Below, in pieces: positions 1 to 4,507 of a stretch of 5,118 nt of DNA (the stretch's first letter is position 1; each line of letters opens with the position of its first letter). A model generated the notes under the pieces. It was not told the origin of the DNA. It searched no databases and saw nothing but the letters and a program-made list of their open reading frames with translations. The position numbers were made by a program, and so were the translations under genes. Source of the DNA: a virus (Duplodnaviria > Heunggongvirae > Uroviricota > Caudoviricetes); IMG/VR virus record IMGVR_UViG_2548876946_000011, positions 1 to 5,118 of that record; one strand, written 5' to 3'.

Positions 1-128
1 AGAGCGTTTTTGTCGCTCGCAGCTGAATCCAGCCAGAATCCAAACTCAATATCCAGCGCATCAAAAAGCCAAAGCGGCGTTTGCCAGCAGTCCTTGTCGT
101 GTGCTGGCGTATTTGATTTGATAGTCAT
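1..128 (-). CDS. Partial CDS (first 42 codons; gene continues beyond the window start). nin-region protein whose N-terminus resembles phage Dam-type N6-adenine DNA methyltransferases
   Basis: Minus-strand ATG at 128..126 overlaps the ninB stop in an ATGA arrangement (plus 125-128 = tcat). Reverse-complement translation of 128..1 is MTIKSNTPAHDKDCWQTPLWLFDALDIEFGFWLDSAASDKNAL with no stop before the window edge. The D-x-W-x-TP...LF..L...FGF..D.AAS pattern is recalled from phage Dam-like methyltransferases; this is not a computed match. Not in the ORF track because it is truncated. Confidence 0.55.
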   Translation of the reverse strand, partial: MTIKSNTPAHDKDCWQTPLWLFDALDIEFGFWLDSAASDKNA

Positions 129-565
129 GCAGCCCGATCTCCCCATCGCGCTTTCCACTCCAGAGCCAGTCGCGCTTCGTCTGACCACTTAACGCCATGC
201 TCTGTACCAAATGCCTGTATAAGCTCTAATAGCTCCGCAAATTCGCTTACACGCATCCTGCTGGTTGACTGGCCTATTACCACAAAGCCATTCCCGGCAA
301 GGTTAGGAACAACGTCTTGCTGCTTTAATGCTGCGGTAAACACACACTTCCAGCTTTCTGCATCCAGCCAGCGACCATGCCATTCAACCTGACGAGAGAC
401 GTCACCTAAGCAGGCCCATAGCTTCCTGTTTTGGTCTAAGCTGCGGTTGCGTTCCTGAATGGTTACTACGATTGGTTTGGTTGGGTCTGGAAGGATTTGC
501 TGTACTGCGTGAATAGCGTTTTGCTGATGTGCTGGAGATCGAATTTCAAAGGTCAGTTTTTTCAT
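125..565 (-). CDS. ninB: NinB (Orf-family recombination mediator), 146 aa
   Basis: ORF-track protein from MKKLTFEIRSPAHQQNAIHAVQQILPDPTKPIVVTIQERNRSLDQNRKLWACLGD... matches lambda NinB as I remember it. Start chosen at ATG 565..563 (MKKLTF), preceded on the minus strand by GGGGGAGAGGGAAGTC as Shine-Dalgarno. The track's longer start at 583 (MGEREV) overlaps the upstream terminator T-tract and has no SD. Stop TGA at 127..125. Confidence 0.95.
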   Translation of the reverse strand: MKKLTFEIRSPAHQQNAIHAVQQILPDPTKPIVVTIQERNRSLDQNRKLWACLGDVSRQVEWHGRWLDAESWKCVFTAALKQQDVVPNLAGNGFVVIGQSTSRMRVSEFAELLELIQAFGTEHGVKWSDEARLALEWKARWGDRAA

Positions 566-580
566 GACTTCCCTCTCCCC

Positions 581-613
581 CAAATAAAAAGGCCTGCGAT
601 TACCAGCAGGCCT
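581..613 (-). terminator. Rho-independent terminator (lambda tR2-like) between the helicase gene and ninB
   Basis: On the minus strand, 8-bp GC-rich stem AGGCCTGC (613..606) pairs with GCAGGCCT (597..590) around an 8-nt loop, followed by TTTTTATTTG (589..580), 25 nt after the helicase stop. The ninB RBS follows immediately. Confidence 0.8.
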
Positions 614-638: not shown

Positions 639-2015
639 TCATACGTCAGCCCCTTGTGCATATCGTCTGCCACGTGCAGCGGGTGCATTTGATGCTGTGC
701 AAATCTGTCTGGCTTCATCCTGGTCACATGCAACAAAGTGTCCGTTACAGAACCGCTGGTAAACCGTACCAAGCGAGCCAAAACGGTTTTTCGTCACGAT
801 GATTTCAGCAAATGGCGCGGCGCTACTGTTCTCGTCATATACCGCTTCCCGATAGAGCATGATGATTGAGTCTGCGTCCTGCTCAATGCTTCCTGAATCA
901 CGCAAATCTGCGTTTGTCGGGCGTTTGTTTGGTCGCTTCTCAACATCGCGCGAAAGCTGACTCAGGGAGATAACTGGCGTTTTCAGGTCTTTCGCCATCG
1001 CCTTAAGGCTTCCTGAGATGTGAGCAATTGCGAGGTCGTTGCGGTCTGCTTTCGGCTTCTCAATCAGGCCAAGATAATCCGCCATGATGAGTGAGAGGTT
1101 TGGATTTTCCTGTTTGTGCCGCTCTGCGATTGAGCGAATTTCTTCTACCGATAACCGCGAGGCATCGACTACCCATACATCCAAATCTGCAAGCTGACTC
1201 ATGCCGTTAGCAACACGCGCCCAGCCTTCGTCATCCATCGATGCAGGATTTCGCAGTACGCTAACCGACATCCTCCCGGCGTTGGCAATGCTTCGCTCTG
1301 CAATCTGCAATGCGCTCATTTCCATCGAGAAAATCAACACTCCGCGCCGGACGTCAGAACCAGGAATAACGCGGCTTGCCACGCCTTCGGCAATCTTCAG
1401 CGCCAGTTCGGTTTTCCCCATACCAGGACGAGCGGCGATTATCACCAGATCTTCCGCGTTCATCCCTCCGGTGATGGCATCAAGTTCTTCGATTCCGGTC
1501 TTCAGGGTATCGGACTCTTCTCCGTTCCTCAGACGCCTGTCAAGCGTGTCAGTGTAGTCAGTAATGATTTCCCCTAACCGTACAGGTTTTACCTCGTCAC
1601 GGGGCTTTCTGATGGCTGAAAGACGCTTTACAAGTTCATCCATCGCCTGACTCGATGCGTCGATGGTTCCGCTCTGAATTGGTTCACGCATTTCATCCAT
1701 GATTTCCAGCACCAGACGGCGGTGATAGTTATCCGCGACCATTCCGGCATATCCCTTCAGGTTTGCGGCACTCGGGCAGTTTTTGCTGGTCATCAGGATT
1801 GACGTGAAATGCTCCTCTCCGCACGCCTCGGCAACCATCAGCGCGTCGATTAGGTTTCTGTTTCGCGCCTGCTTGCGGATAACCTCGAAGGCTTTCCGGT
1901 AGAGCGGAATTGAAAACGCTTCCGGCTCCAGCGTTGCCAGAACGTCGCTGGCGGTTGGTGTTAATCCACCAATCAGCAAGCCACCGATAACGCTCGCTTC
2001 GATATCCTGTCTCAT
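639..2015 (-). CDS. Replicative DNA helicase, DnaB family (phage P22 gene 12-like), 458 aa
   Basis: Full-length ORF with Walker A motif [16 protein letters not shown], a RecA-like core ([31 protein letters not shown]) and a DnaB-like N-terminal region. Minus-strand RBS AGGGGGA upstream of ATG 2015..2013. The start overlaps the stop of the upstream O-like gene (ATGA), suggesting translational coupling. Confidence 0.95.
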
Positions 2016-2842
2016 GCAATCCCCCTGTCTGCAAACTTCCCTTCCCGTACTCCAGTTAACGAATCTTCCCTCAGCAGGTAATCAAAATCAGCTGTCCAGC
2101 CCGTGTCGTTGTCTCCGAAGTAAAACGGCTTGGCCTGATGCACAAACGCCCTGACATACGCTCTGAAACCGTCCACGTTTGGCGTTTTCAGTTGCGGGAT
2201 GATTTTCTTCAGGCGGCGTTTGCGTTTCTCGTTGACCGCAACAGCGTGTGGCAGTCTGTCACCGACTTCGGTGTTGTAGGCGTTCAGGAAGGATTCATAG
2301 TCGATTCGTTCTGCCTTGCGACGTTCAGGTTTAACCTGCCCATCGCCGCCCCCGTTAGGGGGTAAGGGGGTATTTGTATTTATTGTCTTTTGTATATTGT
2401 CTTTTGTGTTTGACTGATTCGGTAAATTGCTTTTTACCGATTTGGTGAAGGTTTGTTTTACCGAATTGGTAAATGTTTTACCGAATCCGTTAACTTTCGT
2501 TTTCCACTCGGAAATGTTTGTATTCATACCAACTTGACGCCCCACCTGAATGAGAACTCCCATTCTGATAAGCTCGTTTTTGGCGGTAGAGCATTTGGTT
2601 GGTGCCATGCCAGTGAGTTCAGCGAACTGTTCGTTTCCGATCCAATCTATTTTTTTGTTGTAACCGTATGTCTTGCGCCACACAGCCATAACAATCAGTA
2701 ACTGATGTAGAGTAAGTCCAGAAAGCATGGCGGCTTCTAACAGTGTGTTTGCAGTCCGAGTGTAGCCATCTTCGAGTTCTGCCACGCGATGCTCCACGAC
2801 CTCCAGTTGAGGCCTGTAATCAGCTAACTTAACGACGCCCAT
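2012..2842 (-). CDS. O: Replication initiation protein, lambda O / P22 gene 18-like, 276 aa
   Basis: N-terminal region ...[59 protein letters not shown]...[11 protein letters not shown]...NISEW resembles the lambda O N-terminal iteron-binding domain (remembered LDDGYARLSNMLLEAY...ILRKTYGWNK...ISEW). The gene contains the iteron/AT-rich origin. Strong RBS AGGAGTG upstream of ATG 2842..2840. A Pro/Gly linker ([10 protein letters not shown]) precedes the C-terminal domain, which is expected to recruit the helicase. Confidence 0.9.
2371..2493. other. Candidate phage origin of replication (ori-lambda-like): four iterons plus an adjacent ~40-bp AT-rich region inside the O-like gene
   Basis: Iterons at 2409..2493 are followed, in the direction of O transcription, by the AT-rich segment 2371..2408 (tatttgtatttattgtcttttgtatattgtcttttgtg). 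This is the same order and scale as the lambda origin inside O. Assignment is by architecture only. Confidence 0.75.
2409..2493. repeat. Iteron array, 4 copies of an ~18-bp partially palindromic repeat (consensus about TTTTACCGAATTGGTAAA)
   Basis: Copies at 2409..2426 (tttgactgattcggtaaa), 2432..2449 (ttttaccgatttggtgaa), 2456..2473 (ttttaccgaattggtaaa) and 2476..2493 (ttttaccgaatccgttaa), spaced 23, 24 and 20 bp. Each has TTACC/GGTAA dyad arms. They encode a repeated peptide in the O-like protein ([16 protein letters not shown]). Confidence 0.75.
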
Positions 2843-2990
2843 GTTTCACTCCTGCTTTGGCTAGTCTGTAAACACCAACAAGGCGCTCTGCGAACGCCCT
2901 GTTATTTGCTGCGGCTACCACTAATCCCTCAGGTGAATCAGGGTGTCGAATCTCTTCTTTTTCCTGGTATTTCTTACGACGTTTTGTCAT
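2829..2990 (-). CDS. Hypothetical small basic protein, 53 aa, between cII and the O-like gene
   Basis: Not in the ORF track (below its length cutoff). Minus-strand ATG at 2990..2988 is preceded by AGGAGT with 5-nt spacing. My translation is [53 protein letters not shown], with stop TAA at 2831..2829 overlapping the first codons of the O-like gene. No homology is claimed. Confidence 0.4.
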   Translation of the reverse strand: MTKRRKKYQEKEEIRHPDSPEGLVVAAANNRAFAERLVGVYRLAKAGVKHGRR

Positions 2991-2999
2991 AATTACTCC

Positions 3000-3079
3000 T
3001 GTGGATTGATCCAGTAATTCCCTCAGAATTGCATATCAATTTGCTTAAAATCCTCGGTGGCGGCCGGGGATTTTTTCTT
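3000..3079 (+). ncRNA. Candidate OOP-like antisense RNA (about 80 nt), antisense to the 3' end of cII
   Basis: Plus-strand extended -10 motif TGtCATAAT (2985..2993) gives a predicted start near 3000. A strong intrinsic terminator at 3046..3079 lies inside the cII 3' coding region on the opposite strand. Position and size mirror lambda OOP RNA. Inference only. Confidence 0.35.
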
Positions 3080-3319
3080 TGTGATTTCATCAAGCGCATA
3101 CTTAAAAGCCCTGCTAATCGGACTGATGTCTGATGCCATTCCGAAAGCACACAAGACCGAAGCAATAAATCTCCAGTCCGTTCTGCTTATCTTCGATTCA
3201 TGACAGCCAATCATCTTTGCCAGACCGCGCTGGGTAAGCGTTGACAGGTTGATGAGTAAATCTGTTTCTGCGCGATCAATTTCTCGCTGTGTTGGCTTGC
3301 TGTAACTTGCTTGTGTCAT
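3023..3319 (-). CDS. cII: CII-type transcriptional activator (lysogeny establishment), 98 aa
   Basis: ORF-track protein ends ...DEITKKKSPAATEDFKQIDMQF, resembling the lambda CII C-terminus (...NKKRPAATERSEQIQMEF as recalled), with a central HTH-like segment (LAKMIGCHESKISR). It sits between cro and O as in lambdoid phages. A TTGC-N6-TTGC motif lies antisense within its 5' end. Confidence 0.88.
   Translation of the reverse strand: MTQASYSKPTQREIDRAETDLLINLSTLTQRGLAKMIGCHESKISRTDWRFIASVLCAFGMASDISPISRAFKYALDEITKKKSPAATEDFKQIDMQF
3046..3079 (+). terminator. Rho-independent terminator on the plus strand inside the cII 3' end (candidate OOP terminator)
   Basis: Stem 3049..3056 (atcctcgg) pairs with 3063..3070 (ccggggat): 8 bp including one G-U. 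Loop is tggcgg, followed by TTTTTTCTTT (3070..3079). A-T extensions on both flanks (3046..3048 / 3071..3073) could allow some bidirectional function. Confidence 0.65.
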
Positions 3320-3329: not shown

Positions 3330-3404
3330 TTCCAATAGTGAATAGTTAGTTGAAAGGTATGCGTGGAAACGCATATGGCCTTAGTTGGTCAGATATATTG
3401 GGAC

Positions 3405-3450
3405 TCGCTTTTCAGCGACGTAGGACGAATGTCCGTTGTTACAAAGAGCG
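3405..3450 (-). promoter_or_regulatory. Candidate nutR (boxA plus boxB-like hairpin) just downstream of cro
   Basis: Minus-strand boxA CGCTCTTT (plus 3450..3443) begins 12 nt after the cro stop. Then gtaacaac, a small hairpin GGACattcGTCC, tacg, and the boxB-like hairpin TCGCtgaaaaGCGA (plus 3418..3405). The same boxA-aacaac-hairpin-tacg-boxB layout recurs at the candidate nutL. Confidence 0.55.
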
Positions 3451-3460
3451 GACCCGCTTA

Positions 3461-3676
3461 TTAAGCAGCTTTGTGTTCCGGCGGGAACACGTCATCAAGA
3501 CTGACTTTTGCGCCTAACTTGTTTAGGCACTCAACAAGAGCACGGCATGTTTTAAGGTCTGGGAAGCGACGACCAGATTCCCAATGTCCGATAGCTCCCT
3601 GTGTGCATCCAACTGCCTTAGCAAGTGTTGTTTGAGAGATATTCAGTGACTCTCGATATTTTCGTAGGTTGCTCAT
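3461..3676 (-). CDS. cro: Cro-type HTH repressor, 71 aa
   Basis: Small HTH protein MSNLRKYRESLNISQTTLAKAVGCTQGAIGHWESGRRFPDLKTCRALVECLNKLG... divergent from cI, with a recognition helix very similar to that of the cI here (TQGAIGHW vs TQGGIGHW). Start at ATG 3676..3674 has an upstream GGAGGG. The track's longer start at 3703 lacks an SD and lies upstream of the predicted pR start. Confidence 0.85.
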   Translation of the reverse strand: MSNLRKYRESLNISQTTLAKAVGCTQGAIGHWESGRRFPDLKTCRALVECLNKLGAKVSLDDVFPPEHKAA

Positions 3677-3702
3677 ATGCCCTCCATAGTAACCATAACA
3701 CA

Positions 3703-3731
3703 ATAATACGATATGTACTTTTAGAATGCAA
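3703..3731 (-). promoter_or_regulatory. Candidate pR promoter driving cro
   Basis: Minus strand: -35 TTGCAT (plus 3731..3726), 17-nt spacer, -10 TATTAT (plus 3708..3703). The spacer (tctaaaagtacatatcg) is nearly identical to the pL spacer (cagtaaagtacacatcg). Confidence 0.65.
3705..3719. promoter_or_regulatory. Candidate operator (OR1-like) overlapping the pR spacer and -10
   Basis: Minus-strand sequence AGTACatatcGTATT, half-site pattern AGTAC-N5-GTAyT. Same motif and same position relative to the promoter as the pL site at 4586..4600. Confidence 0.5.
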
Positions 3732-3764
3732 ACAAAAAATACATCTTGTGCATGGATGATTTTA

Positions 3765-3779
3765 GTACAGAGCGTAATA
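3765..3779. promoter_or_regulatory. Candidate operator (OR3-like) next to the cI start, overlapping a possible pRM -10
   Basis: Plus strand AGTACagagcGTAAT fits AGTAC-N5-GTAnT. A weaker possible middle site AATACatcttGTGCA lies at 3738..3752. A possible pRM -10 TAATAA at 3775..3780 would put the start near ATG 3788. Confidence 0.4.
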
Positions 3780-3787
3780 ATAAGGGT

Positions 3788-4447
3788 ATGAAAATGAAAT
3801 GGTATGAACTGGCTAGATCCAGAATGAAAGAGCTAGGCATAACTCAAGAGAAGTTAGCTGAAGAGCTTGGTATGACGCAGGGTGGAATTGGTCACTGGTT
3901 GCGCGGATCTCGTCATCCATCTCTTGACGAGATTGGTGTGGTGTTTAAATACCTTGGTATTGATAACGTCTCATTCAACCACGACGGTACATTTTCACCT
4001 GTTGGCGAATACTCATCTGCCCCCGTTAAAAAACAATATGAGTACCCTGTTTTTTCTCATGTTCAGGCCGGGATGTTCTCGCCTGAGCTTAGAACCTTTA
4101 CCAAAGGTGATGCGGAGAGATGGGTCAGCACAACCAAAAAAGCCAGTGATTGTGCGTTTTGGCTTGAAGTTGAAGGTAATTCCATGACCGCGCCAACAGG
4201 ATCCAAGCCAAGCTTTCCTGACGGGATGTTAATTCTCGTTGACCCTGAGCAGGCTGTTGAGCCAGGTGATTTCTGCATAGCCAGACTTGGTGGTGACGAG
4301 TTTACCTTCAAGAAACTGATCAGGGATAGCGGTCAGGTGTTCCTACAACCACTAAATCCGCAATATCCAATGATTCCATGCAATGATAGCTGTTCCGTAG
4401 TAGGGAAAGTTATCGCCAGCCAGTGGCCTGAAGAGACATTTAGTTAA
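3788..4447 (+). CDS. cI: CI-type prophage repressor (HTH N-domain plus LexA/S24-like autocleavage C-domain)
   Basis: C-terminal portion [52 protein letters not shown]...[15 protein letters not shown] is almost identical to the lambda cI C-terminal domain as I remember it, including the Ser (GNSMTAP) and Lys (FKKLI) catalytic context. The N-terminal HTH ([23 protein letters not shown]) is unlike lambda. Start is uncertain: the longest ORF begins at 3746, but 3788 (MKMKW) or 3794 keeps the candidate operators in the intergenic region. AAGGG lies 7 nt before the 3794 ATG. Confidence 0.93.
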
Positions 4448-4477: not shown

Positions 4478-4507
4478 AACCCGACCTTAGCGTCGGGTTT
4501 TCTTTTT
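4478..4507 (+). terminator. Rho-independent terminator immediately downstream of cI
   Basis: Stem aacccgac (4478..4485) pairs with gtcgggtt (4492..4499), 6-nt loop cttagc, T-tract ttttcttttt (4498..4507). It begins 31 nt after the cI stop. Confidence 0.8.

Follow-up and report, generated by a model that had tools for sequence, protein, structure and literature searches.

Positions 2964..3077 (+) of the window (i.e., the whole stretch of 5,118 nucleotides of viral DNA that was analyzed) very probably represent the pO-oop-tO unit of a lambdoid E. coli (pro)phage, with an antisense action on cII proposed by analogy to lambda. Judged by its sequence, the element is a homologue of lambda pO-oop-tO and more than OOP-like. 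OOP was among the earliest antisense RNAs to be described. The original prediction of an OOP-like antisense RNA ending inside the 3' end of cII was supported by an ungapped alignment to lambda, a 33-bp signature and an identical geometry. The element is an ordinary member of the already known lambdoid OOP family, and its sequence variant has been published. With its letters running against the pR operon, the window represents the immunity and replication region of a lambdoid E. coli (pro)phage and includes the following features:

125..583 (-), ninB
639..2015 (-), DnaB-like helicase
2012..2842 (-), O-like initiator (Phage_rep_O)
2829..2990 (-), 53-aa ORF of the HK97 gp53 / Nil2 ORF53 type (162 nt including the stop codon)
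2964..2969 (+), candidate -35 of pO, CTGGTA (best available; weak, with a 3/6 match and an 18-nt spacer)
2983..3015 (no strand assigned), conserved lambdoid block of 33 bp (published consensus ACTGGATCaATCcACAGGAGTaATTATGaCAAA, PMC3349717; 0 mismatches)
2985..2993 (+), extended -10 of pO, TG-t-CATAAT (from sequence; aligns to lambda TGTCATAAT)
2999..3014 (+), LexA-box-like CTGTGGATTGATCCAG across the predicted start (one mismatch to CTGT-N8-ACAG)
3001..3077 (+), predicted OOP RNA of 77 nt (5' G3001, 3' end in the U-run; ends assigned by homology)
3001..3044 (+), stem-loop I (outer stem 3001-3010/3035-3044, inner stem 3014-3020/3026-3032; MFE and centroid fold)
3023..3319 (-), cII, the proposed antisense target (Pfam Phage_CII, E 4e-33)
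3047..3076 (+), intrinsic terminator tO (hairpin 3047..3074 with U-run 3071..3076; terminator scan and fold)
3461..3703 (-), cro-like HTH gene
3746..4447 (+), cI-type repressor, HTH plus Peptidase_S24

Alignment to lambda and structure of the predicted RNA

The window was found to align to lambda 38,599..38,694 without gaps from the -10 box through the terminator, with 58 of the 77 nucleotides of the OOP RNA identical. When identity was scored in 20-nt bins, 14-17/20 positions matched over 2981..3080 compared to 3-8/20 on both flanks, which is the random level. Thus, the homology island coincides with pO-oop-tO, and neither the cII body nor the upstream gene is related to lambda at the DNA level. 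A sharp mosaic boundary was observed in this comparison, with lambda DNA homology confined to 2981..3080. In lambda, OOP starts at base 38,675, the -10 box is located 8-13 nt upstream of this base and 52 nt of oop overlap cII (PMC5869508). These landmarks map in the window to G3001, CATAAT at 2988..2993, a cII overlap at 3026..3077 and an RNA end near 3077. The ends of the RNA were assigned by ungapped mapping of lambda 38675..38599 onto the window; by this approach the start, placed earlier near 3000, is predicted to be G3001. The position, length and antisense relationship claimed to be shared with lambda OOP were likewise recovered, with a predicted RNA of 77 nt and a 55-nt overlap of cII in both phages.

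Within the window, the predicted RNA (3001..3077) overlaps cII by 55 nt including the stop codon, with RNA nt 23-25 facing the stop codon (3023..3025) and nt 26-77 facing the last 52 coding nt (3026..3077). Complementarity of the RNA to cII mRNA is automatic, as the RNA is cis-encoded. Positions 3000..3079 fold as RNA into two hairpins of -30.4 kcal/mol (z = -3.7 vs dinucleotide shuffles). The tO hairpin is composed of 12 pairs, i.e., an 8-bp G+C-rich core (UCCUCGGU/GCCGGGGA) and 4 A-U pairs, closed by a GGCG loop, and was the strongest terminator-like site detected on the + strand of the window by terminator scan. The scan thus agreed with the plus-strand terminator with an 8-bp stem described earlier, giving a hairpin at 3047..3074 with an 8-bp core. 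Its placement within the last ~55 nt of cII on the opposite strand also held, as cII (3023..3319, -) contains both the hairpin and the T-run. The T-tract had been given as 3070..3079; a T-run is present, but the pure run spans 3071..3076 and is followed by C and TT, and position 3070 is an A. The cII tail KKKSPAATEDF (window 3047..3079) is encoded opposite the tO hairpin and U-run, with its lysines derived from the T-run.

The extended -10 element TGtCATAAT was confirmed by sequence at 2985..2993 (+), with TG at 2985-2986 and CATAAT at 2988..2993 (+). This element had been placed about 55-90 nt upstream of the terminator; the measured distances are 54 nt to the hairpin and ~78 nt to the T-run. 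Among the upstream variants listed, the 22 commonest retained the TGn. By contrast to the homology-based assignment, a generic sigma-70 scan of the window left pO uncalled (8/12 matches), because the best -35 matches at 3/6 positions only; the promoter assignment therefore rests on the extended -10 and homology.

A 33-bp block, ACTGGATCaATCcACAGGAGTaATTATGaCAAA, that covers pO and the oop 5' end is common to 23 lambdoid phages (Hayes et al. 2012, PMC3349717) and was first noticed as a boundary sequence shared by HK620 and lambda. This block was detected in the window at 2983..3015 with 0 mismatches, compared to 0 matches expected in shuffles. Included in it are the -10 of pO, the start codon and Shine-Dalgarno of the gene that follows to the right, and oop nt 1-15. 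Because orf53 takes both its start codon and its Shine-Dalgarno from this block, conservation of the -10/start region is not attributable to the promoter alone. In particular, the ATG of the 53-aa ORF plus 3 nt reads as CATAAT of pO on the opposite strand, and the Shine-Dalgarno AGGAG of this ORF (2996..3000) abuts the RNA start, with ACTCC (2995..2999) as its complement. Three signals were thereby observed within the 17 nt of 2985..3001: the pO -10, the start and Shine-Dalgarno of the 53-aa ORF, and the predicted OOP start G3001.

Genomic context and occurrence in related phages

The whole window is a mosaic with 95.7% identity over 83% of its length to the Stx2 phages 2851, YYZ-2008 and Nil2, and no single phage record matched it over >83% of its length. 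Over 92%, the window was 100% identical to a prophage of E. coli Z1322HEC0003. Phage HK106 was 100% identical over the segment 2940..3100; equating the window with HK106 was ruled out, as it is the oop segment alone that is 100% identical and the mosaic window is nearest to the Stx2 phages and the E. coli prophage. When the 53-aa ORF (2829..2990) was searched against Pfam, no match was found.

Additional signals were observed outside of the oop segment. Inside the O-like gene, 2410..2503 contains four copies of a ~17-nt motif (TTTACCGAAT..GT.AA), with direct copies at 2432, 2456 and 2476 and an inverted copy at 2410..2426; these repeats look like origin iterons for the O-like initiator (cf. 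the annotation in the 933W O gene). A TTGC-N6-TTGC direct repeat at 3297..3310 (+), located just within the cII 5' end and pointing towards cro/cI, is the classic site for CII binding at the establishment promoter pRE. The VT2-Sakai record has a 'CII protein binding site' annotated at the equivalent position. Between cro and cII, a nutR-like site at 3405..3450 (-) includes a boxA-like CGCTCTTTG (3450..3442) and a boxB-like hairpin TCGCTGAAAAGCGA (3418..3405) (-). Where the VT2-Sakai record has a putative rho-dependent tR1, the window contains another hairpin, ATGCGTTTCCACGCAT (3376..3361). Just downstream of the cI-type repressor gene, a perfect 8-bp hairpin at 4478..4499 (AACCCGAC...GTCGGGTT) was called as a terminator on both strands; it probably stops transcription from either direction at the border of the immunity region.

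The core of the element (2981..3080) is identical in VT2-Sakai and differs by one loop base (3062) in Nil2, in which the upstream DNA including ORF53 is also identical to the window; 933W is 94% identical over 2983..3100. The oop of Stx-converting and HK-type lambdoid phages (VT2-Sakai, Nil2, 933W, HK97 and HK022) was catalogued by Hayes et al. 2012 (PMC3349717, Figs S1/S2). As VT2-Sakai and Nil2 are both in this published comparison, the sequence variant of the window was already catalogued as oop. A literature search for oop experiments in Stx/933W-type phages returned sequence comparisons and reviews only.

The element was matched in 1,106/5,426 complete E. coli genomes, with 651 records at least 99% identical. 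An oop feature was absent from the lambda, HK106, VT2-Sakai, 933W and Nil2 records, and none was annotated in the eight RefSeq E. coli records among those listed; the P22-pbi record was the only one inspected that marks a promoter and terminator. The practical value of the finding is in the annotation of a common element.

When the window was compared to the covariance models of Rfam 15, no match was obtained at E<=1 and the gathering threshold was not reached. Similarly, the 200-nt slice 2940..3140, the lambda oop locus and the P22 locus gave sub-threshold, terminator-like matches only. Matches to STnc310, AgvB, sar, Ref55 and the Phe/His leaders (E 0.08-5, far below gathering scores) were rejected as terminator-like chance matches, and STnc310 as a disguised prophage OOP was ruled out, since it did not match the P22 locus. 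The lambda oop locus itself gave only chance matches of E~1 in Rfam 15. As the lambda and P22 oop loci were found to be without a family match, Rfam 15 holds no OOP family, and its silence says nothing against membership of the element in such a family. With the 26 to 36 variants gathered in this analysis, there would be sufficient material to seed an Rfam OOP family.

These variants were retrieved by scanning IMG/VR with a -10/5'-end pattern, which fixes RNA nt 1-14 and returned at least 120 loci. Among the loci listed, 36 distinct 85-nt elements and 26 distinct RNAs were detected that group into three families (lambda-type, window-type and P22-type). All 26 of the distinct RNAs among the matches listed fold as a 5' hairpin followed by a terminator at 63-64, 76-77 or 80 nt. 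Terminator sequences are unrelated between the families, yet the shape of a hairpin plus terminator is kept in each. Counts that depend on the flanks were based on the 96 listed loci with enough flanking sequence. In these 96 loci, with one exception, a cII-type protein encoded on the opposite strand terminates at RNA position 23-26. The overlap with cII, including the stop codon, among the listed loci is 55 nt for the lambda-type and window-type, 58 nt for the imm21-type and 39 nt for the P22-type. In every listed locus, the next gene to the right starts at the CAT of the -10: a lambda-type ORF starting MTNTAKILNF (O, mostly 299 aa) in 37/96, a window-type ORF (MT/PKR...KKYQEKE, nearly all of 53 aa) in 35/96 and a 48-aa P22-type ORF in 22/96.

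The terminator helix was found to be conserved in structure. In an alignment of 18 sequences of the 77- and 80-nt forms, the helix was 99.1% paired compared to 36-62% when the partner strand was slid. Two pairs were changed on both sides (CG<->UA and GC<->CG), which represent few independent events. These double changes alter two residues of the cII tail, KK[S/R]PAATE[D/R] (S<->R and D<->R); thus, the hairpin is kept at the cost of amino-acid changes in cII.

Proposed function and alternative explanations

Lambda OOP is a self-terminating 77-nt antisense RNA that is transcribed from pO and pairs with cII-O mRNA (PMC5869508). When abundant, it lowers CII and favours lysis. Down-regulation of cII occurs by RNase III-dependent cleavage of the duplex (work of Krinke & Wulff), a mechanism established for lambda only. 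Small-RNA sequencing revealed a P22 oop transcript, antisense to c1, with a reported sequence that agrees with the P22-type variant of the present collection; the OOP-BTP1 transcript was detected in the transcriptome of the Salmonella prophage BTP1. By analogy to lambda, P22 and BTP1, we infer transcription of the copy in the window, its exact ends, its dependence on RNase III and its effect on CII. By this model, RNA polymerase would start at the extended -10 promoter TGtCATAAT, initiating at about G3001, and would transcribe leftward in phage-map terms, against the pR operon. Transcription would stop at the intrinsic terminator inside cII and release a 77-nt RNA of two hairpins. This RNA would be fully complementary to the cII-orf53 mRNA over a stretch that runs from the spacer end next to cII through the final 52 coding nt of cII. 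As in lambda, the duplex would be cut by RNase III with the cII message then degraded, and the lower level of CII would shift the lysis-lysogeny decision in favour of lysis. In addition, pR read-through into the replication genes may be dampened by convergent transcription from pO.

This last activity could instead be the main one: the unit would be real and act at the level of DNA and transcription, with pO convergent to pR and modulating read-through into the replication genes, and with any antisense effect secondary. We consider such an arrangement possible, albeit unlikely. Plasmid copy number and pR read-through in lambda respond to pO activity and not to raised OOP levels (PMC3985674). 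In the window, pO is located directly upstream of the orf53, O-like and DnaB-like genes, with the ori-like iterons ~500 nt away. By contrast, promoter interference would not require the conservation of an RNA body and terminator with a fixed cII overlap that was observed in every family, and antisense inhibition of cII is experimentally established in lambda. The replication module is also of a different type here (DnaB-like helicase compared to lambda P), and DnaA boxes were not detected near pO (none within one mismatch of TTWTNCACA from 2900 to 3100). As a transcription-level role is compatible with antisense regulation of cII, it would add to this regulation and not replace it.

We also examined explanations in which the element does not generate an OOP RNA. 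The block may have been kept as a ribosome-binding site and gene start and as a recombination joint, with the hairpin reflecting the cII tail or the 3' structure of cII mRNA and no RNA made from this copy. The orf53 start codon is indeed the CAT of the -10, ACTCC is the complement of its Shine-Dalgarno, the homology island is at a mosaic boundary, the block was originally noted as boundary sequence shared by HK620 and lambda, and the -35 of pO is weak. However, conservation runs ~15 nt past the Shine-Dalgarno into the spacer and resumes as a + strand terminator with a U-run, the pairing of which is preserved by double changes that alter cII residues. P22-type hairpins of wholly different sequence are still terminators at the same place, and homologues in the same small-ORF context are transcribed (P22 and BTP1). 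The absence of an RNA from this copy is thus highly improbable. It is scarcely credible that the hairpin is mainly a terminator or barrier for other + strand transcription from the replication-gene region, with TGtCATAAT not its dedicated promoter. While the terminator is strong by itself, promoters were called on the + strand only at 3632 and 4574, with none to the left of the terminator, and the spacing from the -10/start block to the terminator is fixed at 63-64, 76-77 or 80 nt across the families listed. Taken together, we favour a pO-oop-tO unit that acts as an antisense regulator of cII.

Comparison with known OOP systems

The window element and lambda OOP share the extended -10 box, TGTCATAAT, located 8 nt before the G start, as well as a (predicted) length of 77 nt, two hairpins, a cII stop codon at RNA nt 23-25 and a 52+3 nt overlap of cII. 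A LexA-box-like sequence is present over the start in both, with lambda CTGTTGATAGATCCAG at the same place. Differences from lambda OOP were minor. The CAT of the -10 starts O in lambda compared to the 53-aa ORF in the window. Two terminator pairs are swapped between the two elements. DnaA boxes are reported near lambda pO (PMC3985674), whereas none that are DnaA-like were found near pO of the window. The -35 of lambda is TTGAGT (4/6 match, 17-nt spacer) and that of the window, CTGGTA, is weaker (3/6 match, 18-nt spacer).

The DNA upstream of pO in the window is unrelated to lambda, with orf53 instead of O. As this divergence extends upstream from ~2981, the lambda -35 and the upstream sequence reported to be necessary are absent from the window. 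A lambda pO fragment of 45 bp showed no activity, which required 94 bp extending into O (PMC5869508). In light of this requirement, the weaker and differently flanked -35 of the window may matter. P22 has the same small-ORF context upstream of pO, which makes promoter activity in this context plausible.

Stem-loop I also differs between the two types, with pairs 4-14/35-45 in the lambda-type and pairs 1-10/35-44 plus an extra inner stem 14-20/26-32 in the window-type, a register shift of 4 nt. Each register is ~80% paired across sequences of the other type. No double change was found in stem-loop I in either the window-type or the lambda-type register among sequences retrieved with a pattern that fixed RNA nt 1-14. 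We conclude that stem-loop I was re-registered between the window-type and lambda-type, a shift not proven by covariation.

A site for LexA within oop-pO is cited in PMC5869508. The LexA-box pattern was found 4 times in the window compared to 1.9 expected, so that the pattern alone is not significant, and the site over the start is therefore a lead only. Considering the loss of the -35 and upstream O, the reliance on an extended -10, the LexA-box-like start and the re-registered 5' hairpin, the OOP of Stx-/HK-type phages could be regulated unlike that of lambda, although we view this as improbable. If LexA really occupies CTGTGGATTGATCCAG, DNA damage would induce OOP through the SOS response, and OOP would then help to commit Stx-type prophages to lysis and toxin release. 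A LexA-controlled OOP, if true, would represent a variant regulatory input and not a new kind of element.

Compared to P22 oop and OOP-BTP1, the window element is alike in its promoter/5' block, its small-ORF upstream context (orf48 in P22 and BTP1) and a terminator inside the cII-equivalent gene. The P22 and BTP1 RNAs differ in being shorter (63 nt) with a 39-nt overlap, and their body and terminator beyond nt 15 are unrelated to those of the window. As the conservation of OOP in lambdoid and Stx phages is published, including this exact variant, the element carries little weight as a discovery; the original prediction also shows that a true small-RNA gene is recognisable from raw sequence. 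When compared to the oop of Stx-converting and HK-type phages, nothing substantive was found to differ from the window element.
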